Below are positions 5,131 through 17,440 of a DNA stretch of 64,000 nucleotides, one piece after another; position 1 is the stretch's first letter, and each line of letters opens with the position of its first letter. This stretch comes from Fidelibacterota bacterium (GTDB taxonomy: Bacteria > Fidelibacterota > UBA8477 > JABMPR01), in contig JAIPJF010000008.1 of assembly GCA_021734325.1 (NCBI GenBank), forward strand, positions 4,136 through 68,135, written 5' to 3'. The notes below the pieces were generated by a model that was not told the DNA's origin, did not search any database, and saw nothing but the letters and a program-made list of their open reading frames with translations. The position numbers and the translations under genes are program-made.

Positions 5131-6777
5131 TTATTTATAGTATTCTCTCAAATAATCCTGAACCATTCGAGTACCTGTAAATTGTACCCCTGTTTTGATC
5201 GCTTCTCTGATTATTGATATCCATTTCCTCTGATCATTGTAGAAGGTGGGAATGATTTCCTCTTCAAGGAGGCGATACAAATGATCAGCATCTGCAGCAT
5301 CATTGGCGTTGTTTGGATCGCCAATGGCCCAGCCATTCACCCCGTGATTGCATCCCTCGGCCCACCATCCATCCATGATTGACAGGTTGGGGACACCATT
5401 CAGGGTTGCTTTCATACCCGAAGTCCCTGAGGCTTCATTGGGACGTAGTGGCGTATTGAGCCATACATCCACACCTGAGGTAATCAAATTACCCAGCCAC
5501 ATATTGTAGTTTTCGAGAAAAACGATCTTTACTTCACCCTGCAGCTCTTTGGCCTGTATTACGATATCTTTCAAGATCTCTTTTCCATGATCATCTCTCG
5601 GATGTGCTTTTCCAGCAAAAACAAATTGAATTTTATTCCCTTTCGCCATTCGGATCAACCGCTCTTTGTCATGGAATATGAGTCTCGCCCTTTTGTATTC
5701 GGCTGCACGTCTGGCAAAGCCAATAGTTAATATCCGAGGCGAAAGCGCTCGCTGTGACTGTGAGTTTGCATAGTCCAAAAGAAATTTCTTCTGACCGCGA
5801 CGAGCAAAGAGAAGCTCTTCGGCGGGGATACTGTCGATCTCCAGCAGTCTGGTTGGATCTTCACGCCAACCTGGAAGGTTACGGTCATATACTTCACGGA
5901 AGATCTTTCCCACCCAGTATCTATGAAATACACCATTGGTCACATGACCGATCTTGAATTCAGGGAACTGATCTCTGGCAACTTGACCATGCAAAGCAGA
6001 GACACCATTGGCACTCCGACTATAATAAAGACCCAGCTCCGTCATGTGCACACGACTATTGAGGACCATACTTGGTAATTTCAAATCATTGGGAAGCAAA
6101 TCGCCGATCAATTTGCTTACTCGCTCGCTGGCAAAATGATCATGCCCTGCCGAAACGGGAGTATGAGTCGTAAAATGACAGCGTTTCCTCACTTCCTCTT
6201 CATTCCCGGCAAATTCTTTTAATAATTCCAGGGTCAGGAAGGAGCAATGGCCCTCATTCATATGATAGGTCGAAAAATCTTTGTATCCCAATTGACGCAG
6301 GATCCGAATCCCGCCAAATCCGAGAATGGCTTCCTGAAGGATTCGATGATCTTTCCCACCTGCATAAAGACGAAGTGTAATATCCCGGTCTTCTTCTGTA
6401 TTCTCAGGAATATCTGTATCGAGAAAGAGGACATCGATATTATTCCCCCTGATACCGGTAAAAGTATATTTCCAGGCCTGAATCTGGACATCATGTCCAC
6501 GCAGAGGCAAACTTACCATGACTGGAAGTCTGTCCAGGAAGGGCTCTGGTTCAAAGCGCGGATAGACTTCAGTCTGATTCCCTTCTTCATCCATTCTCTG
6601 CTTGAAATAACCCTCTTTGTACATCAAGGTCAAGGCGACCATATTGACACCCAGGTCTGCAGCAGCCTTTATGTGATCCCCGGCTAAAATACCGAGACCC
6701 CCACTATAGGTATGAACACTTGGAGATATCCCTATCTCCGCGCTAAAGTAAGCAATAGTGGCTTGATTATTTGACAT
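5131..6777 (-). CDS. glgP: Alpha-glucan (glycogen/maltodextrin) phosphorylase, short GT35 form
   Basis: IAYFSAEIG...YSGGLGILAGDHIKAAADLG is typical of alpha-glucan phosphorylases, along with EASGTSGMKA. The ATG at 6777 is preceded by AAGAGGAA. The track start at 6804 adds 9 residues. Confidence 0.85.
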   Translation of the reverse strand: MSNNQATIAYFSAEIGISPSVHTYSGGLGILAGDHIKAAADLGVNMVALTLMYKEGYFKQRMDEEGNQTEVYPRFEPEPFLDRLPVMVSLPLRGHDVQIQAWKYTFTGIRGNNIDVLFLDTDIPENTEEDRDITLRLYAGGKDHRILQEAILGFGGIRILRQLGYKDFSTYHMNEGHCSFLTLELLKEFAGNEEEVRKRCHFTTHTPVSAGHDHFASERVSKLIGDLLPNDLKLPSMVLNSRVHMTELGLYYSRSANGVSALHGQVARDQFPEFKIGHVTNGVFHRYWVGKIFREVYDRNLPGWREDPTRLLEIDSIPAEELLFARRGQKKFLLDYANSQSQRALSPRILTIGFARRAAEYKRARLIFHDKERLIRMAKGNKIQFVFAGKAHPRDDHGKEILKDIVIQAKELQGEVKIVFLENYNMWLGNLITSGVDVWLNTPLRPNEASGTSGMKATLNGVPNLSIMDGWWAEGCNHGVNGWAIGDPNNANDAADADHLYRLLEEEIIPTFYNDQRKWISIIREAIKTGVQFTGTRMVQDYLREYYK

Positions 6778-9009: not shown

Positions 9010-9055
9010 TAAATTGACTACCCTAACACACAATAAAAAGAATCAGCTTATAATA

Positions 9056-9100
9056 GACATTCAGGAGTTGATCTAACAATCCGATCAACCCCTGAATGTC
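9056..9100 (-). terminator. Long intercistronic hairpin between gap and the GH57 gene (terminator, attenuator or processing site)
   Basis: The 18-nt arms GACATTCAGGAGTTGATC and GATCAACCCCTGAATGTC pair with one mismatch around a 9-nt loop. On the minus strand a U-rich stretch follows within about 25 nt. Confidence 0.5.
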
Positions 9101-9115
9101 TCAAACGATTAACTA

Positions 9116-10117
9116 CTACATGTCCTTGAACATGTTAATCAGGTCCACAACGCGGTTTGAATAGCCCCATTCATTGTCATACCAGTTCAAGGTTTTAACA
9201 ATCCGGTTACCTACGACGCGTGTATATTGCGCATCATAAATAGAAGAGAATGAATTCCCAATGACGTCTGAGGACACCAGGTGACCTTCACTGTACTCAA
9301 GAACGCGCTTCAGACGCTCCGTTTGACTGGCAGCACGAACCGCATCATGAATATCATCAACAGAGACATTGCGACTCACTTCAACAATTAGATCCACAAC
9401 AGAGCCATCAGCCACAGGCACTCTGGCAGCAATACCATCCAGCTTCCCGGCCAATTCAGGGAGTACTTTCCCAACGGCTCTTGCAGCGCCAGTCGTGGTC
9501 GGAATGATATTCTCCGCAGCAGCACGGCTACGACGCCAATCTGAGTGCGGAACGTCAGCCAAACGCTGGTCATTGGTATATGCATGGGTCGTTGTCATCA
9601 CACCTTCAACGATACCGAAGGCATCATTAAGAACCTTTGCCATGGGAGCGAGACAGTTTGTTGTACAACTGGCATTCGAGATGATTTTATGTTCAGGTTT
9701 CAGACCGTCCTCATTCACGCCAAGGACCACGGTATAATCGATCTCATCCTTTGAGGGAACGGTGAGGATTACTCGTTTTGCACCAGCAGTGAGATGCTGG
9801 GTCAGAGATTCTTTAGTCCTAAACACACCAGTTGCTTCAATTACCACGTCAATTTCGAGCTCTTTCCAGGGCAGTTCTGCCGGATTACGAAAATTGAGCA
9901 TCTTCACCGTATCATTAGCCGTATGGAGTATGTCTCCTTCGATGCGAACAGAAGGGTCCCCAAAACCACCCATAACGGTATCATACTTCAGCAAATATGC
10001 CAGAGCCTGATTATCGAACAAATCATTGATTGCAACTACGTTTATATCTTTACGTTTATCCAAAATTCTGAATACTGAACGACCAATGCGCCCGAATCCA
10101 TTAATGGCTACTCTCAT
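9116..10117 (-). CDS. gap: Glyceraldehyde-3-phosphate dehydrogenase, type I (canonical)
   Basis: It has INGFGRIGR, the active site SNASCTTNCLAP, THAYTNDQ, RRSRAAAENIIPTTTGAA and WYDNEWGYS. Confidence 0.93.
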   Translation of the reverse strand: MRVAINGFGRIGRSVFRILDKRKDINVVAINDLFDNQALAYLLKYDTVMGGFGDPSVRIEGDILHTANDTVKMLNFRNPAELPWKELEIDVVIEATGVFRTKESLTQHLTAGAKRVILTVPSKDEIDYTVVLGVNEDGLKPEHKIISNASCTTNCLAPMAKVLNDAFGIVEGVMTTTHAYTNDQRLADVPHSDWRRSRAAAENIIPTTTGAARAVGKVLPELAGKLDGIAARVPVADGSVVDLIVEVSRNVSVDDIHDAVRAASQTERLKRVLEYSEGHLVSSDVIGNSFSSIYDAQYTRVVGNRIVKTLNWYDNEWGYSNRVVDLINMFKDM

Positions 10118-11130
10118 GCAGCACCTCCTTCAACCCCAAGCTTGGCATAAGCCAGTGCTAGATCTACCAATCGACCTGCCTGTCCAAGACTGTTATCATA
10201 CCAGCTGAGCGTTTTGATCATGCGCTTGCTGGATTTCATCGTCCCCTTTGTATCAAAGAGCAGGCTGTGCGGGTTGCCGATGACGTCGCTGGACACGATG
10301 GGATCCTCAGTAATTTCAATATAGTTGGACAAGGATCCAGCAGCTTTCCGCATGGCATCATTAACCTCTTCAACGGTCGCACCACCTTTGTTCAGAACAC
10401 AGGTAAGGTCGAGTAATGATCCCATGGGAACAGGAACATTTAAAGCTGAACCTTCAATTTTGCCCTTAAAACGTGGCAGTATGTGCTCAATCCAGTAGGG
10501 GCTGATATTGACATTCGGGATGATATTTTCTGCGGCAGAGCGACTACGACGGAAATCTGCGGCAGCGGTATCACGAAGGGGTTGATCACTTGTATAGGCA
10601 TGGATGGTCGTCATCATTGCATATTCAACACCAAAAGCCTTATCCAAGATATCCACCATCAGGGCCAGGGCATTCGTTGTTGCAGAGGCAGCGGATATCA
10701 ATTTATCACTGGCCTGGATGGTATCGTCATTAACGCCCATCACAATTACCCGGTCAATATCATCCAGGGGGAGTGAACCCAGAATCACTCTTTTTGCACC
10801 GGAATCCAGATGAGCCTGCATGGCCTCATGTGTCCGATATTTGTGGGTTGAATCGATCACAATATCCACATTAAATGCATCCCAGGGAACATCCTTTGGT
10901 TCTACGCCGTGAATGATACGTGCTTTATGCCCATCTACGACCAGATTGTTGCCCACTAAAGCGGCATTAACGGGATTTCTACCGTCTGTTTTCATCAGGT
11001 AGTGCAAAATATCTGCACGACCGATGTCACTAATTGCAACGACTTCCATTTCAGGCTGGGTTAGACTCAAGCGGTAGACATCCCTACCAATTTCGCCAAA
11101 GCCCATGAGCCCGACTCTTAACTTACTCAT
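10114..11130 (-). CDS. GAPDH-fold paralog lacking the catalytic cysteines (predicted non-catalytic or divergent)
   Basis: It is colinear with gap (GFGEIGR, TIHAYTSDQ, RRSRSAAENIIP, WYDNSLG). The active-site segment reads SAASATTNALA, and the TTGAA segment is replaced by NVNIS. The ATG at 11130 has a GGAGG 8 nt upstream. Its TGA overlaps the gap ATG (ATGA). Confidence 0.85.
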   Translation of the reverse strand: MSKLRVGLMGFGEIGRDVYRLSLTQPEMEVVAISDIGRADILHYLMKTDGRNPVNAALVGNNLVVDGHKARIIHGVEPKDVPWDAFNVDIVIDSTHKYRTHEAMQAHLDSGAKRVILGSLPLDDIDRVIVMGVNDDTIQASDKLISAASATTNALALMVDILDKAFGVEYAMMTTIHAYTSDQPLRDTAAADFRRSRSAAENIIPNVNISPYWIEHILPRFKGKIEGSALNVPVPMGSLLDLTCVLNKGGATVEEVNDAMRKAAGSLSNYIEITEDPIVSSDVIGNPHSLLFDTKGTMKSSKRMIKTLSWYDNSLGQAGRLVDLALAYAKLGVEGGAA

Positions 11131-11201
11131 AAAATGCGCCTCCATGCTGATCCCACATCAGGTGGGAAAGCTTATTAAGGTTTAAATTGTTATTCACGAT
11201 T

Positions 11202-12035
11202 TCAGTCCTTAGATGTATAAATAATAGGTTCATGATCCTCGTGGAGCAGGTCATCCAGATCACGGATCTCCCCCTCCAGCATGCGGGCAATCACTTCACC
11301 CATATCAATATTGTATCTCTGCCCAAATAATGTGAGATCCAGGATGATGTAGTTCAAGGCAATCGAAACAATTGCTGTATTCTTTGTCCATGCGACCTTA
11401 TTACTCGGTAACATTTCAACTCCACCAAGGAGGGCAGAATCACGATCGGCTACCAATAGAATCTTGCTGCTCCAAACATTTTTCAAGCGTTTGCTATCAA
11501 GATTGTATGAAAAGATCGTCCCAACATCAGCCGGTATCTCACAAAAGGAAAAGATGACGATGTTTACACCGCGTTTTTCTGCCTCTTTCAGATCAGCATG
11601 TAATTTCTCAAGCTCTGTCCGCCAAATGGAAAGATAAACCGAACTCTCAGCACCCCGGATCATGGTCTTTGCTCTTTCGATCATGGTATCATAGCCACGA
11701 ATATTCCAGAGGTCGCCGACTTCAAGGTCAGCATTGACGTTTTGGAGGGATGCCTTTAAGGCATCCAGATTGGCGCTGAAATTGTTTTCAAGCATCTCAA
11801 AAAAATTGTCTGGTGGTAAAGGAATATAACGTGTAGGGTTGGTATCGACACAGCTTACCATGCCAGTGTTTTCCAAACGCTTCAGTATCTCATATATGGC
11901 TGATCGCGGGATGCCTGACTTGCCACTCACTTCATAACCTGTGGCAGGATTATTTTGCAACAAACTCAGGTATGCTTTGGCCTCGTTGGAAGTGAATCCG
12001 AAGGATTTGAGGGCAGGAAGTAGCTTTTCATTCAT
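11202..12035 (-). CDS. TrmB-family sugar-responsive transcriptional regulator
   Basis: The N-terminal winged HTH FGFTSNEAKAYLSLLQNNPATGYEVSGKSGIPRSAIYEILKRLENTGMV is typical of TrmB. A C-terminal effector-like domain is also present. Confidence 0.75.
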   Translation of the reverse strand: MNEKLLPALKSFGFTSNEAKAYLSLLQNNPATGYEVSGKSGIPRSAIYEILKRLENTGMVSCVDTNPTRYIPLPPDNFFEMLENNFSANLDALKASLQNVNADLEVGDLWNIRGYDTMIERAKTMIRGAESSVYLSIWRTELEKLHADLKEAEKRGVNIVIFSFCEIPADVGTIFSYNLDSKRLKNVWSSKILLVADRDSALLGGVEMLPSNKVAWTKNTAIVSIALNYIILDLTLFGQRYNIDMGEVIARMLEGEIRDLDDLLHEDHEPIIYTSKD

Positions 12036-12184
12036 AAGCGTGTCTCACTTCTTAGTTACGCCTAATATATACTTCTCCAAGGGTCTGCATAGTATTTTTT
12101 GGAAGCCCGAAAAAATATTTCCATAACACCAAAAACAAACCCTTTTCCTTTCATCATGGAATCGTCTGCAATACATTGCCAGCC

Positions 12185-14455
12185 ATGAAAAAACTCATCT
12201 ATTTCGTTACTGAATATCCAAAAACTGTCATCATTCTTAATCTCCTTCTGATCACTATTCTCGCACAACCCATCTATCGGATTCACATTAATCCTGATCT
12301 TCGGGCACTGATCCCTTCAGATGATCCCGAATTGATCCGAACCGAGGAATTGGAGGAAGAATTTGGTGGATTAGACATCATTTTACTCACTTATCATAGC
12401 GAGAATGTCTTTGCAATCAAATCACTCCAACTGATAGATGAACTCAGTACTGCCGTGGAAAACATCCCACAAATTGACCACCTGATCAGCCTCACCAATT
12501 ACGAATCGATCTCAAGCGAAGATGAGACAATGGTTGTGGATACGTTTATCAGGAATTTCCCGAAAAACAAGCATGAGTCTGACTCCCTTGCCAGGGCAGC
12601 CACAGATGACCCTATGATCGGGCGACTGCTCGTATCTGACGATCATAGCTATACAGCGCTGCTCATATTCACGGATACTGACGCTGATGAAGTTGCCACA
12701 GTAGAAGCTCTCAGAAAGGTCCTCGAACCTTTCAAGGCTGCCGGACATGATCTGCAATTAGGGGGCATGCCAGTCATTCGGACCCATATCAGCGAGGATA
12801 TCGGGAAGGATACACGCACCTTTATCCCTGCCGGCATGCTGTTAATTGCCTTTCTTCTGTATTTTAGTTTCCGATCACGAAGGGGTACTCTGCTGCCATT
12901 GATCGTTGTCGTGCTTTCCATCCTCGGTACATTGGGGCTGATGGCCTGGTTGGGATTGATGTTGTCAGTTATCTCAAGTATTATGCCCATAATGCTGATC
13001 GCCGTTGCCAGTGCCTATGGCATTCATATCATCACCCGCTATTTTGAGGATTGCTCCACCATGGAAGACACAGCGGGCAGTAAGGAAATTGTTGCCAGCG
13101 TTATCGAGCATATGCTGCGGCCTGTTTTTCTGGCGGCGTTGACGACTGTTATCGGATTTTTATCGCTGCTCTCGCATATCCTTCCCGCTTCACGTGAAGT
13201 TGGCGTTCTAACTGCTTTTGGAGTGGTGCTCGCTTTTGGATTGTCCATCACATTTATTCCTGCGGTTCTGGTCCTGTTCGATAAACCGAGCAAAGAGAGA
13301 CAGAGCAAGAACCTCACGAGCAGACTGCTCTCCAGGATATTGGCAGCCCTTGGGAATTTTGTGTACAGCAGAAAAAAAACAGTCATGGCTGGATTTGCCA
13401 TTCTTATGCTTGTTTCTGTAATGGGAATTCCTTCAGTGGTACTGGACAGCAACCCCCTCAACTATTATGGTCCTGAGTCCAGTGTTCGATTGGTTAATAC
13501 GATTATTGATGAAAATTTTGGCGGCAGTACCACAATGTCTGTTGTTGTGGAAGGGGATATCAAATCTCCTGATATCCTCAAGCAAATTGATCGTATTCAA
13601 TCCTACCTGAATGGAATTGATGGCGTTGGCTATACTTTAGCCATTACAGATTTCATCAAACTCATGAACCAGTCGATGCATGAGGGAGACCCGACCTATT
13701 ATAGAATTCCTGACTCCAGAGCGCTTGTCTCCCAGTATCTATTACTCTACTCCTGGGAATCAAGTGATGGATATCTGGATTCCTATGTTGATTATGATTA
13801 CAGACAGGCACAACTCGTGGTTCGCATGAATACCATGGATGTATACAGGATGGTTGATATCCAGAATGAGCTTAATCGGTTTTTAAATGACAATATCGTT
13901 GTGGACAATCATCCAAAAAGTGAAGGCTACGCCGTCCTCCTTGGAAACCTTATGCCCATGATGGTAAAAGGACAGATCAGAAGTTTGATCCTATCTGTGG
14001 TTTTAGCCGCTTTCGTCACCGGCCTGGTATTTAGATCTGTTGCCGCTGCCTTTATCAGTGCCCTCCCATTAGCATTTGCAATTGCAGGTGTTTTTGGTCT
14101 CATGGGTTATTGGAATATTTATTTGAATACGGCTACCTCCATGCTGAGTTCAATTATGATCGGGATAGGAATTGATTATACCATACACTTCCTGTTTCGA
14201 TTCAGAACCGAGATCCGTAAGGGATTGAGTGACCAAGAGGCAATTGTCACATCTCTCAGCACGACCGGCCAGGGAATTATCATTAATGGTTTTTCTGTAA
14301 TGATGGGTTTTGCTGTCTGTATGCTCTCTACCTTCATACCCATTTACTTTTTTGGTTGGTTGATTGCTGTATCGATATTTATGTGTTTGATCGCTGCTTT
14401 GACATTACTCCCCGTCATCATTATTCTCACGCGTCCTAAATTCATTTACAGTTGA
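12185..14455 (+). CDS. MMPL/RND-superfamily exporter (COG1033-like)
   Basis: It has about 12 predicted TM segments in two 6-TM bundles, each preceded by a large soluble loop. The size and layout are typical of the MMPL family. The ATG at 12185 (MKKLIYF) is preferred over the TTG at 12176. Confidence 0.7.
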   Translation: MKKLIYFVTEYPKTVIILNLLLITILAQPIYRIHINPDLRALIPSDDPELIRTEELEEEFGGLDIILLTYHSENVFAIKSLQLIDELSTAVENIPQIDHLISLTNYESISSEDETMVVDTFIRNFPKNKHESDSLARAATDDPMIGRLLVSDDHSYTALLIFTDTDADEVATVEALRKVLEPFKAAGHDLQLGGMPVIRTHISEDIGKDTRTFIPAGMLLIAFLLYFSFRSRRGTLLPLIVVVLSILGTLGLMAWLGLMLSVISSIMPIMLIAVASAYGIHIITRYFEDCSTMEDTAGSKEIVASVIEHMLRPVFLAALTTVIGFLSLLSHILPASREVGVLTAFGVVLAFGLSITFIPAVLVLFDKPSKERQSKNLTSRLLSRILAALGNFVYSRKKTVMAGFAILMLVSVMGIPSVVLDSNPLNYYGPESSVRLVNTIIDENFGGSTTMSVVVEGDIKSPDILKQIDRIQSYLNGIDGVGYTLAITDFIKLMNQSMHEGDPTYYRIPDSRALVSQYLLLYSWESSDGYLDSYVDYDYRQAQLVVRMNTMDVYRMVDIQNELNRFLNDNIVVDNHPKSEGYAVLLGNLMPMMVKGQIRSLILSVVLAAFVTGLVFRSVAAAFISALPLAFAIAGVFGLMGYWNIYLNTATSMLSSIMIGIGIDYTIHFLFRFRTEIRKGLSDQEAIVTSLSTTGQGIIINGFSVMMGFAVCMLSTFIPIYFFGWLIAVSIFMCLIAALTLLPVIIILTRPKFIYS

Positions 14456-14510
14456 TTGGAGCAAAACATTTCTCTTGACAGGAATATAAATTTCGCTACA
14501 TTGGAAACGT

Positions 14511-15140
14511 ATGACACTAAAAACGTTTCCATCGGACCCCATTGCAAACTCACCTGAAAGCTCAATTCTGGAGCATGGACTGGATGTCATTTTTCGCGAA
14601 GGCGTAAAAGGATTTACGGTTGAAGCACTTGCCAGTGATCTGGCAATGAGTAAAAAAACGATCTATAAGTTCTTCCCCAGTAAAGAAGTTCTACTACAGA
14701 GCATCTTTAAGTATATCACCAACATAATTGAACGAAAATTCCAATCGATCCTGAAAATGGAGATCAACCCCCTGGACAAATTTGAAACAGCGGTTTCCGA
14801 GATCGTAAAAACACTCAACAGAGTTTCCATATCCAAGATAAGTGAGTTGAAAGCCAGGTATCCCCATATCTGGAGGGAAATAGAACAGTTCAGACTTGCC
14901 CGCCGTGACGATTTTCTGACCATTTTTATTGAAGCTCAGGATGCGGGATATATCCGCAAGGAACTGGACCTGGAGCTCACCTCCATACTCTTCATGAATG
15001 TTATTAATGAAGTTTTTCAGCCAGAGTTCTTTTTAAGAAACCAGATCGGAATAAAAGAAGTCCTGCTCCTTTTCAGGAGCATATTTTTGAGGGGGATCGT
15101 AACCAGCAAGGGGTTAAAATACATAGAGGATAAATTATGA
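14511..15140 (+). CDS. TetR/AcrR-family transcriptional regulator
   Basis: The N-terminal HTH reads FTVEALASDLAMSKKTIYKFFPSKEVLL. The stop overlaps the next MMPL start (ATGA). Confidence 0.8.
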   Translation: MTLKTFPSDPIANSPESSILEHGLDVIFREGVKGFTVEALASDLAMSKKTIYKFFPSKEVLLQSIFKYITNIIERKFQSILKMEINPLDKFETAVSEIVKTLNRVSISKISELKARYPHIWREIEQFRLARRDDFLTIFIEAQDAGYIRKELDLELTSILFMNVINEVFQPEFFLRNQIGIKEVLLLFRSIFLRGIVTSKGLKYIEDKL

Positions 15141-17440
15141 AACAGTGGTTTATTGATCAATCCGTTGTACATCCAAAACGTAGCATTATCCTGTCCATTC
15201 TCCTGACGATTCTCATGGGGACCGGGATAAAGTACTTCGTCGTCGAAGATGACTTCATGAAACTGCTCCCCCAGGATGTACAATCAATGATTACCTGGAA
15301 CAATCTCCGTGATGAATTTGGCAGTACGGACCTCATGTTCGTGGCTTTTGGCCATTCAGGTGGAGATGCCCTTAATCCCGAATCCCTGGCTACACTCTGG
15401 GACGTTACTCAGGCCATGGCCGAGGTAGAAGATGTAGACGAGGTTATCAGCCTCGCCAACATGGATCGCATGGATGGCGACGAAGGTTTTCTGGAAGTTA
15501 GTTCCTTGCAGCCCGCCAGGGAGGTATCCGATTCAGAAATCAGTTCAATTCGGGACTATCTGGACGATAACTCCAAGATTCGAGCTCGATCCCTGAGCCG
15601 CAATGGTGATTATTTCAATATCATGATAAGACCCGTCGTCAATGGCCGGAATGACGTGATTGTACAGGGACTTCAAAAAGTTGCCGCAGAAAACCTGATC
15701 AGCTACGATGTTCATTGGGGGGGACAAAGTTATCTGACAGGATCACTACCCCTCATGATCCGAACCGATGTCATGGCTCTGATGCGGGTAGGATTAATTG
15801 GTATGTTGCTGATCCTCCTGCTCAGTTTTAGAAATATCCCCGCTGTTGGGATTGTACTGGTCACCATTCTCCTCTCTCTGGTCTTTATGGTCGGTTTCCA
15901 TGGCTGGATGTACCATCTCACTGGGTCGGATGCCTTTCTTTTCAGCATCCTGAACACGTCCATGCCCATCATCCTGCTCACCATTGCCAATTCCTATGGT
16001 GTGCATATCATAACGAAATTTTTTCGTAAAATGCGTCTCACCCAGGATGTTAAAGGGTCTGTAGCAGCGAGTCTTGACTCTCTTATCCTACCCGTCTTTC
16101 TGGCAGCCCTGACCACCATCGCGGCATTCCTGAGTATGATATTTGCCCCACTGGAATCGCTTCTGGGGTATGGAATATCGATTTCTGTTGGTATTGTGTG
16201 GGCCTGGCTATTGACAACGATCTTTTTACCATCTTTGCTGGTCGTAAAAAAATGGAAGCCCGATTCAGTCGCCGTGTCAAAAGCCAGTGGATTCGAAAGC
16301 TTTGTCGTTGCATTTGGTGATCAGGTCATCAAACGACCCAAGATGATTCTGGGTGCAGCAATTGTTGTCGTTCTAATTGGTGCGTATGGGATCTTTCAAT
16401 TGAACATTGAAGTGAACATGAAGCATTTTTTCAAACCGGAAAATCCCATTCGCCAGAGTCTGGAATTTATGGACGATGAAATGACGGGCACAATGGACCT
16501 CCAATTATTAATAAATGCCGACCTGAAATCACCTGAAGTTCTCAATAAGATCGAATCCATTCAGACATTCATGGAGTCTCATCCATCAGTTACGCTATCA
16601 ATTTCAATTGCAGATGTGATCAAATTGATGCATCGCATGATAAATGACAATGATCCGGCATTTGAGACCATTCCCGATACAAGGGAAAAGGTGAACAACC
16701 TCTTTACCCTCTATTCCATGTCAGGAGATCCTGATGATTTCAGTTCTCTGGTTGATTACGACTATCGAAAAGGATTGGCCACATCCATGATGCGGGCCAT
16801 ATCTACCAGGGAGATCGTTCAACTCGTGGATGAAATTGAAGTCTTTCTGTCACAGAATGATTACGAGGATCTTGATATAACCATCACCGGTATGCTTGTG
16901 GTTTTTCGCGATCTTGTATCCCTGATCCTAAAAAGTTCCTTTATCAGCATTTTTGCCTCCATCATCGTGATCGCCCTCATTGCGGCCTATTTCTTTAAAC
17001 ACTGGATATGGGGGGCGATGGCGATTATTCCACTCAGTTCTGCCGTTATCTTGAATTTCGGTCTGATGGGAATTTTTGGAATCGATCTCAATCATGTCAC
17101 AGCACTTCTATCTGCCATCATCATTGGTGTGGGGGTCGATTTTGCCATCCACTATATCAGTCAGTTCCGTGTACACCTGAGGCGCGAGGGTTTGACTCCC
17201 AGTATCAGCCATGCTACCATGCAGGACGTGGGGTATCCGGTTATGCTCGATGCCGCCTCAAATATGGCCTTTGGATCCCTGCTCTTTTCAGAGTTCATCC
17301 CCATGATACACATGGGTGGACTCATGATCTTTGCCATGATCTCAACTTCTGTTGGGACACTCACCTTGTTGGCTGTATCACTGGAACTTTCAAAACATTA
17401 TCTGGCCAAGGTGGAAGCGGTCAAGATTATAGAAGATTAA
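15137..17440 (+). CDS. MMPL/RND-superfamily exporter (second paralog)
   Basis: It has the same two-module topology as 12185..14455, with conserved-looking segments (NSYGVHIITKFF versus SAYGIHIITRYF). Confidence 0.7.
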   Translation: MKQWFIDQSVVHPKRSIILSILLTILMGTGIKYFVVEDDFMKLLPQDVQSMITWNNLRDEFGSTDLMFVAFGHSGGDALNPESLATLWDVTQAMAEVEDVDEVISLANMDRMDGDEGFLEVSSLQPAREVSDSEISSIRDYLDDNSKIRARSLSRNGDYFNIMIRPVVNGRNDVIVQGLQKVAAENLISYDVHWGGQSYLTGSLPLMIRTDVMALMRVGLIGMLLILLLSFRNIPAVGIVLVTILLSLVFMVGFHGWMYHLTGSDAFLFSILNTSMPIILLTIANSYGVHIITKFFRKMRLTQDVKGSVAASLDSLILPVFLAALTTIAAFLSMIFAPLESLLGYGISISVGIVWAWLLTTIFLPSLLVVKKWKPDSVAVSKASGFESFVVAFGDQVIKRPKMILGAAIVVVLIGAYGIFQLNIEVNMKHFFKPENPIRQSLEFMDDEMTGTMDLQLLINADLKSPEVLNKIESIQTFMESHPSVTLSISIADVIKLMHRMINDNDPAFETIPDTREKVNNLFTLYSMSGDPDDFSSLVDYDYRKGLATSMMRAISTREIVQLVDEIEVFLSQNDYEDLDITITGMLVVFRDLVSLILKSSFISIFASIIVIALIAAYFFKHWIWGAMAIIPLSSAVILNFGLMGIFGIDLNHVTALLSAIIIGVGVDFAIHYISQFRVHLRREGLTPSISHATMQDVGYPVMLDAASNMAFGSLLFSEFIPMIHMGGLMIFAMISTSVGTLTLLAVSLELSKHYLAKVEAVKIIED

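Follow-up and report, generated by a model that had tools for sequence, protein, structure and literature searches.

The catalytic cycle of glyceraldehyde-3-phosphate dehydrogenase (GAPDH) passes through a thiohemiacetal and then a thioester on Cys149; His176 serves as base, and Arg231 and Thr179 bind the phosphate group of the substrate (residues are numbered as in the Bacillus stearothermophilus enzyme, Bst, unless paralog numbering is indicated). In GAPDH tetramers the S-loop packs against the subunit related by the R axis and lines the cofactor pocket of that subunit. In the chloroplast A2B2 enzyme, where the paralogs GapA and GapB form one heterotetramer, S-loop residues of one subunit shape the cofactor site of its neighbour, and GapB bears a C-terminal regulatory extension with a redox Cys pair. 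Outside the GAPDH family, the prozymes of trypanosomatids are dead paralogs that activate S-adenosylmethionine decarboxylase (AdoMetDC) or deoxyhypusine synthase by heteromerisation. The AdoMetDC prozyme is described in PMC6221367. In GAPDH itself, replacement of the nucleophilic Cys by Ala abolishes activity, and TbGAPDHL, a component of the trypanosomatid paraflagellar rod, has Pro in place of this Cys, keeps the region of the adenosine site and is reported to be much less conserved than the active isoforms (PMC4106842). Here we analyse a GAPDH paralog encoded immediately upstream of the canonical gap gene in a Fidelibacterota bacterium (assembly GCA_021734325.1, contig JAIPJF010000008.1, positions 4,136 to 68,135; this stretch of 64,000 nucleotides is called the window hereafter). 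The paralog has neither of the two active-site Cys residues nor Arg231, belongs to a conserved family that is inherited together with gap and, in the reading to which we incline, would be a dead subunit of a mixed GAPDH tetramer.

As in the prozyme systems, a dead paralog of an active enzyme is found in the same genome, its catalytic residues have been lost although the gene remains under purifying selection, and it is linked to and co-evolves with its partner. The prozymes differ in being eukaryotic, in belonging to another enzyme family and in that their heteromerisation and activating effect are proven, whereas in the bacterial pair such an association is predicted, though here the genes are translationally coupled in one operon. 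By analogy, a prozyme-like partnership is the functional model we favour. The chloroplast GapA/GapB system offers the same two-paralog arrangement, with a heterotetramer that is only proposed for the bacterial pair, but both plant subunits are catalytic and have Cys149 and Arg231, whereas the bacterial paralog lacks Cys149 and has no conserved Cys in its tail. TbGAPDHL is likewise a natural, conserved GAPDH homolog without the nucleophile; however, it is eukaryotic, structural or flagellar, and uncoupled to an active GAPDH, and the ratio of nonsynonymous to synonymous substitution rates (dN/dS) of the bacterial paralog matches that of gap. Finally, engineered C149A and C149S GAPDHs (PDB 1npt, 1nq5, 7c5i, 7c5g) also have Ala or Ser at the nucleophile position and form folded tetramers, but these inactive structural tools are laboratory constructs with all other active-site residues intact, whereas the natural family is also changed at Arg231, in the 206-210 loop, in the S-loop and in the nicotinamide site. 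No description of the bacterial family was found in full-text literature searches, whose coverage leaves out most subscription journals, and only the trypanosomatid GAPDH-like protein surfaced; a widespread dead GAPDH paralog locked to gap is apparently undescribed so far.

A GAPDH paralog overlapping gap

The two genes and the elements on which the argument rests are located in the window as follows:

9116..10117, minus strand: canonical type I GAPDH gene gap (333 amino acids), the conserved partner, with SNASCTTNCLAP, TTHAYT, TTTGAA, ARVPV and WYDNE present
10114..11130, minus strand: Cys-less, Arg231-less GAPDH paralog, predicted non-catalytic subunit (338 amino acids; Gp_dh_N and Gp_dh_C domains)
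11139..11143, minus strand: Shine-Dalgarno (SD) sequence GGAGG of the paralog, 8 nt 5' of the ATG at 11130, invariant in 10 related loci
10114..10117, minus strand: ATGA overlap, formed by the gap ATG (10117..10115) and the paralog stop TGA (10116..10114)
10124..10130, minus strand: SD sequence AAGGAGG of gap, within the last paralog codons (..EGG..), GGAGG core at 10128..10124
10681..10683, minus strand: GCA, Ala150 of the paralog at the position of the nucleophile Cys149 (codon re-read and homolog alignment)
10669..10671, minus strand: GCC, Ala154 of the paralog at the position of Cys153 (codon re-read and homolog alignment)
10438..10440, minus strand: AAT, Asn231 (LNVPV), replacing Arg231 of the substrate-phosphate (Ps) site (codon re-read and homolog alignment)
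10516..10599, minus strand: S-loop region, residues 178-205, AYTSDQPLRD..DFRRSRSAAENIIP, the most conserved paralog segment
10501..10515, minus strand: NVNIS, replacing the TTTGA phosphate-binding loop, Bst 206-210 (alignment)
11083..11103, minus strand: GFGEIGR, altered dinucleotide-binding motif with Arg10 replaced by Glu (alignment)

The paralog had been listed as an open reading frame (ORF) spanning 10114..11145 on the minus strand. Its real start is the ATG at 11130..11128, since this ATG is preceded by the GGAGG and four close relatives have ACG in place of the ATG at 11145; an identical NCBI protein, from a Candidatus Marinimicrobia metagenome-assembled genome (MAG), is likewise 338 residues long. 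The adjacent gap, which also has NGFGRIGR, RRSRAAAENIIPTTTGAA and WYDNEWGY, is a textbook type I GAPDH. A first reading of this DNA made from the letters alone (the sequence-only reading) had described the paralog as colinear with gap over its whole length, and pairwise alignment agrees, with 41% identity over 327 residues (E = 3e-83).

Both Pfam domains, Gp_dh_N and Gp_dh_C, are recognised in the paralog (E-values 5.8e-20 and 2.4e-44) as they are in the window gap. With the type I GAPDH model (GapA; TIGR01534, EC 1.2.1.12; cutoff 367.2 bits), however, the paralog scores 293.3 bits, below the cutoff, and gap 430.9 bits, above it. The paralog shares with the type I enzymes the fold, about 41% identity, Ser148, Thr150, His176, Thr179, Arg194/195/197 and the S-loop framework, but it lacks Cys149, Cys153, Arg231 and the 206-210 loop, has drifted at Asn313, Glu314 and Tyr317 and has Glu for Arg10; in a functional sense it is, on these sequence features, outside type I GAPDH and unable to run the thioester mechanism. 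Other diverged bacterial GAPDH paralogs, Epd/GapB of Escherichia coli (erythrose-4-phosphate dehydrogenase, E4PDH) and the ArsJ-associated GAPDH, give only sub-threshold matches (227.5 against a cutoff of 530.55 with TIGR01532 and 233.4 against 539 with NF010058 for E4PDH; 226 against 450 for the ArsJ-associated model), and unlike the Cys-less paralog they are active thiol enzymes that keep Cys149. No NCBIfam cutoff for GAPDH, E4PDH or ArsJ-associated GAPDH was reached, and no NCBIfam model covers the family.

The AlphaFold2 (AF2) model of the paralog (pLDDT 87) has the GAPDH fold, with a TM-score of 0.88 to many GAPDHs in the PDB, where searches by sequence and by fold retrieved no solved member of the clade.

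Residues lost and residues kept

Re-reading of the minus strand at 10695..10663 confirmed the codons reported in the sequence-only reading, TCC GCT GCC TCT GCA ACA ACG AAT GCC CTG GCC, and with them the replacement by Ala of both active-site Cys residues (GCA at 10683..10681, GCC at 10671..10669); conversion of GCA to a Cys codon (TGY), said there to need more than one change, takes three. The paralog motifs GFGEIGR, TIHAYT, RRSRSAAENIIP and NVNIS were also given correctly, and the replacement of Arg231 by Asn, missed in that reading, is to be added to them.

A survey of 72 paralog/partner pairs extends these observations to the family. Position 149 of the paralogs is occupied by Ala (45), Ser (26) or Pro (1) and never by Cys, position 153 by Ala (63), Val (4), Pro (4) or Ser (1), and position 231 is Asn in 72/72 paralogs and Arg in 72/72 partners. 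Thr206 of GAPDH is mostly Asn in the paralogs and Gly209 mostly Pro or Ile. As far as the alignment tells, the anion sites are disrupted, Arg231 (Ps) and the Thr208-Gly209 part of the inorganic phosphate (Pi) site being lost and Arg195 retained. Arg10 is replaced by Glu in 60/72 paralogs and the third Gly of GxGxxG (Gly12) by Pro, Asn or Ser in 34/72; the position of Arg77 is variable, and so are Asn313, Glu314 and Tyr317 on the nicotinamide side, with Asn313 retained in 33/72. Position 32 is Asp or Glu, and the tally for the NAD site is one of retention at Gly7, Gly9, Arg13 and Asp/Glu32 and frequent change at Arg10, Gly12 and Asn313. Invariant among the paralogs are Gly7, Gly9, Arg13, Thr96, Ser148, Thr150, Thr179, Asp181, Arg194, Arg195, Arg197 and the general base of GAPDH, His176 (72/72), together with residues peculiar to the paralog, namely Pro184 (Bst 183), Asn231, Trp213, Pro121 and Tyr328 in paralog numbering. 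Because it has no conserved nucleophile and no Arg231, and its nicotinamide site is drifting, the paralog cannot, to judge from these residues, be a GAPDH, and it is unlikely to be a hydride-transfer enzyme of any kind. The earlier statement that it cannot be a conventional GAPDH holds: Cys149, Arg231 and the 208-210 loop are missing, and Asn313, Glu314 and Tyr317 have drifted.

In the conservation map, no highly conserved stretch of the paralog is longer than the S-loop, HxYTSDQPLRD..DFRRSRSAAENIIPN. There, Pro188 is changed to Ala or Val where the partner has Pro, position 185 is Arg, and an aromatic residue at 193 is matched by Trp193 of the partner. The partner lineage has derived residues enriched in its own S-loop (Ala185, Val187, Trp193, Glu201) and has several derived states in common with the paralog. 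Over the whole protein, mean pairwise identity is 0.60 for the paralog and 0.75 for gap. The C-terminal tail of the paralog, of about 10 residues, ends in a near-invariant Gly-Gly, because the SD sequence of gap is embedded in those codons; no conserved Cys was found in the tail of the 72 paralogs, the only column with Cys in at least 20% of them being residue 22.

Conservation and spread of the family

The closest homologs, taken as the best 120 database matches and reaching down to 55% identity, were found in Marinimicrobia, Bacteroidales/Bacteroidota and MAGs of the Fibrobacteres-Chlorobi-Bacteroidetes (FCB) group. All 120 lack Cys149, with Ala, Ser, Gly or Pro in its place, and Cys153; all have Asn at 231 within [LI]NVP[VI] and retain HxYT and RRSR[SA]AA.NIIP. 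When each GTDB species was represented by a single genome, a pattern scan gave at least 578 loci in these species-representative genomes. In 66 pairs from close Marinimicrobia relatives the median dN/dS (Nei-Gojobori) was 0.042 for the paralog and 0.035 for gap, ratios that are approximate because dS, at about 1.5, is saturated; as estimated from these sequences, purifying selection on the paralog is clearly as strong as on gap. The sequence-only reading had named a decaying duplicate and a sequencing error at 10681..10683 among the results that would overturn it. Nothing beyond the loss of catalytic residues itself speaks for decay, or for an error of sequencing or assembly in the Cys codon, and this explanation is rejected: the ORF is intact and of full length, dN/dS is about 0.04, paralog-specific residues are invariant, and the same substitutions recur in 120/120 homologs from independent assemblies and in the species genomes of the scan.

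A profile search of 1.84 billion representatives brought up deeper relatives as additional 50%-identity clusters. These are without Arg231 and almost always without Cys149 as well, and some of them bear the source labels Planctomycetota (P0136, P0160) and Acidobacteriota (P0139). In these deeper branches position 149 is Asn, Val, Gly or Cys, position 231 is Asn, Lys, Ser, Thr or Glu, and position 195 varies. The acidobacterial P0139 (locus L083, 4001..6045) keeps Cys149 (SAASCTAHA), has Ser for Arg231 and is still ATGA-coupled to a canonical gap. As it retains Cys149 without Arg231, loss of Arg231 seems, from the sequences, older than loss of Cys149, and P0139 may be an intermediate state that reveals the order in which the catalytic residues were lost.

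Some pairs of FCB type occur in MAGs with unexpected labels, i.e. Lentisphaeria (paralogs 90% and 64% identical to that of the window), Binatia and Clostridia (L010, L011, L014, L025), which suggests that these genomes are mis-binned or mislabelled, or that the pair has been transferred laterally. A predicted protein of 2089 residues (P0121), with a signal-peptide-like N-terminus and the architecture GAPDH-GAPDH-PGK-GAPDH-GAPDH, was considered as a Rosetta-stone fusion of paralog and partner and discarded: its four GAPDH domains all keep the Cys and are nearer to canonical GAPDH, and its 'FNVPV' match falls in the PGK domain. P0121 is unrelated to the Cys-less clade.

Pairing with gap

Eighty loci were fetched, and in all 77 with enough downstream DNA (the contigs of the remaining three end there) a canonical gap follows the paralog directly on the same strand. 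These partners have the active site S[NS]ASCTTNC and are 68-91% identical to the window gap. The junction is an ATGA overlap (-4) in 71 of 74 cases, TAATG (-1) in two and a spacer of +15 nt in one, and the same 4-nt overlap is found in L083, L086, L089, L092 and L093. A GGAGG or a close variant (GGAGC, GGAGA, GGGGG, GAAGG) stands at a fixed distance in nearly all pairs, L069 being an exception. The phylum Bacteroidota generally makes little use of SD-led initiation; most Bacteroidales loci (L015-L080) have an AGGAGG-type SD before gap, in the last ~20 nt of the paralog gene, and coupled reinitiation may be a special case in these pairs. Among distant members (P0125, P0131, P0133, P0136 (Planctomycetota) and P0139 (Acidobacteriota)), a canonical gap follows wherever the DNA is reachable, mostly through ATGA. 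Searching in the opposite direction gave the same result, since P0130 and P0134, the sole 'generic' representatives inside the partner clade, are each preceded by an overlapping Cys-less Asn231 gene.

In neighbour-joining (NJ) trees the Arg231-less sequences group together without exception (bootstrap 87/100), and their clade contains no canonical sequence. The partner gaps, including those of Planctomycetota and Acidobacteriota, cluster together on short branches and split in broadly the same order as the paralogs. On sequence grounds the pair behaves as one co-inherited, co-diversifying unit. What had been raised as a prospect in the sequence-only reading, a conserved Cys-less clade always adjacent to gap, is thus found. 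The overlap and the GGAGG inside the last paralog codons were also described there correctly, and from them 'stoichiometric co-translation' was deduced: the translational coupling stands, on the strength of the ATGA overlap and the embedded SD, and the fixed 1:1 ratio is an overstatement.

The near-universal ATGA coupling across phyla and the mirrored phylogenies bear on the idea that the paralog is a non-enzymatic moonlighting or structural protein acting apart from GAPDH activity. There is a precedent for such a conserved dead GAPDH homolog with a structural role and Cys replaced by Pro in the trypanosomatid paraflagellar rod (PMC4106842), and the fold of our paralog is predicted to be intact. 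However, a role of this kind leaves both the coupling and the matching trees unexplained, and no further gene is conserved beside the pair; we consider it improbable.

Possible roles of the paralog

Purifying selection, translational coupling to gap, co-diversification and the focus of conservation on the S-loop are the reasons why we read the paralog as a pseudoenzyme that co-assembles with GapA as a non-catalytic structural or regulatory subunit of a mixed tetramer, a reading that we hold somewhat more probable than all others taken together. Paralog and GapA would be made from one mRNA, with coupled translation, and would co-assemble into a mixed GAPDH tetramer. The working part of the paralog would be its remodelled S-loop (Pro183, Ala/Val188, Arg185 and the aromatic residue at 193). 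Because the S-loop lines the cofactor pocket of the neighbouring subunit, that of the paralog could tune the cofactor affinity or specificity, the cooperativity or the stability of the live GapA subunit. S-loop positions 187 and 188 are those that have been engineered to admit NADP; the titles of PDB entries 1dbv and 3dbv name the mutated residues. In addition, the invariant pocket residues (Ser148, Thr150, His176, Thr179, Arg195, Asn231) may bind a phosphorylated or nucleotide effector.

Several points weigh against this reading. Coupling and co-inheritance would also fit two separate homotetramers acting in one pathway. The FCB clade shows no variation at Ser148, Thr150, His176, Thr179, Arg194, Arg195, Arg197 and Asn231, and a pocket so constant could signify a ligand-binding or even catalytic role rather than a purely structural one; with Asp32, Gly7, Gly9 and Thr96 retained, the paralog may still bind adenosine or a nucleotide. 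Since P0139 has kept Cys149, the family did not originate with loss of the Cys, and the trees are of the NJ type only. The low AF2 confidence of the S-loop carries no weight either way: the canonical partner behaves in the same way with an equally shallow alignment, and this control rules it out as a sign of a special interface.

The strongest alternative is a neofunctionalised homo-oligomer with a new enzymatic or ligand-binding role, one that acts on or sequesters, for example, a triose phosphate, 1,3-bisphosphoglycerate or a nucleotide, co-expressed with gap through a shared pathway. Had function simply been lost, position 231 would be free to drift, but all 72 paralogs have Asn there, and Ser148, Thr150, His176, Thr179, Arg195 and the paralog-specific Trp213 are just as invariant; Asp32, Gly7, Gly9 and Thr96 are kept, purifying selection is strong, and tight operon linkage is typical of consecutive pathway steps too. 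Nevertheless, position 149 offers no conserved nucleophile (Ala, Ser or Pro in FCB; Asn, Val, Gly or Cys in deeper branches), there is variation or loss at Asn313, Glu314, Tyr317, Arg10 and the third Gly of GxGxxG, which makes hydride transfer unlikely, and positions 231 and 195 vary in the deeper branches. Moreover, conservation peaks in the S-loop, an element of quaternary structure, and not around a new catalytic centre. Taken together, we regard the homo-oligomer as unlikely, though well ahead of the moonlighting role.

Going back to the mixed tetramer, it can be extended to a more far-reaching and tentative proposal, which we rate as less probable than not. Much of the FCB group (Marinimicrobia/Fidelibacterota, Bacteroidales, Latescibacterota), together with some Planctomycetota and Acidobacteriota, might have as its housekeeping GAPDH an obligate live/dead heterotetramer, encoded by an ancient co-evolving pair. 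In it, the dead S-loop, with Pro183 and Ala/Val188 at the NADP-gating position, would complete the live cofactor pocket and set NAD/NADP preference, cooperativity or allosteric control, possibly via an effector in the retained phosphate pocket.

Gene neighbourhood and regulatory elements

Besides gap, no neighbouring gene is conserved across the analysed loci. The remaining features around the pair in the window are:

9055..9102, minus strand: strong hairpin directly 3' of the gap stop (-35.7 kcal/mol, z = -7.4 against shuffles)
11151..11167, minus strand: small hairpin TCCCAC-N5-GTGGGA between the TrmB gene and the paralog SD; covariation support weak
11202..12035, minus strand: TrmB-family sugar regulator (Pfam PF01978 and PF11495), adjoining the pair in ~11/72 analysed loci (close Marinimicrobia relatives)

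The hairpin downstream of gap has a stem of ~20 bp, with a U-run ~16 nt further downstream, and escaped a simple terminator scan. A terminator or an mRNA-stabilising element is its probable nature, and it would mark the 3' boundary of the bicistronic unit and separate the pair from the gene for a GH57 enzyme. An Rfam scan of the window gave no matches.

The wider operon was considered as a functional clue and set aside, as the TrmB regulator, the GH57 enzyme and a glucan phosphorylase are near the pair in only ~10 close Marinimicrobia loci; the TrmB gene is lineage-specific context, outside the conserved module. Elsewhere the neighbours, identified by eye from their sequences, are unrelated (LepA-, LpxK-, RelA- and DsbD-like). 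In one locus on a contig of 1.07 Mb (L092, 25..3505), the pair directly follows and overlaps a pyruvate kinase gene and lies beside genes for a PfkB-family sugar kinase and a 2-keto-3-deoxy-6-phosphogluconate (KDPG)-type aldolase (Pfam), a glycolytic or Entner-Doudoroff context. The palindrome TCCCAC-N5-GTGGGA was also rejected as a TrmB-operator-like element, since it is not enriched in the window (21/100 shuffles equal it) and its exact form occurs in no locus; in the Marinimicrobia loci L001-L010 a stem is present at the matching place (about 5960..5985), with a few compensatory changes and weak covariation. At 12176..17440 on the plus strand, divergent from the TrmB-gap cluster, a small gene for a 209-residue protein is flanked by genes for two long multi-pass membrane proteins of 759 and 767 residues; by eye these proteins resemble a TetR-type regulator and MMPL/RND-type transporters, respectively.

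Concluding remarks

Few enzymes have been studied as much as GAPDH, which in bacteria is treated as a homotetramer. Annotation pipelines name these paralogs 'type I glyceraldehyde-3-phosphate dehydrogenase', and because of this label a copy incapable of activity is counted as an enzyme when metabolism is reconstructed from MAGs of Marinimicrobia, Bacteroidales and other groups. Should the paralog be a subunit, a heteromeric GAPDH would serve glycolysis and gluconeogenesis in part of the bacterial world, and the pair would be a clean bacterial model for pseudoenzymes that evolve from, and stay bound to, their active ancestors.

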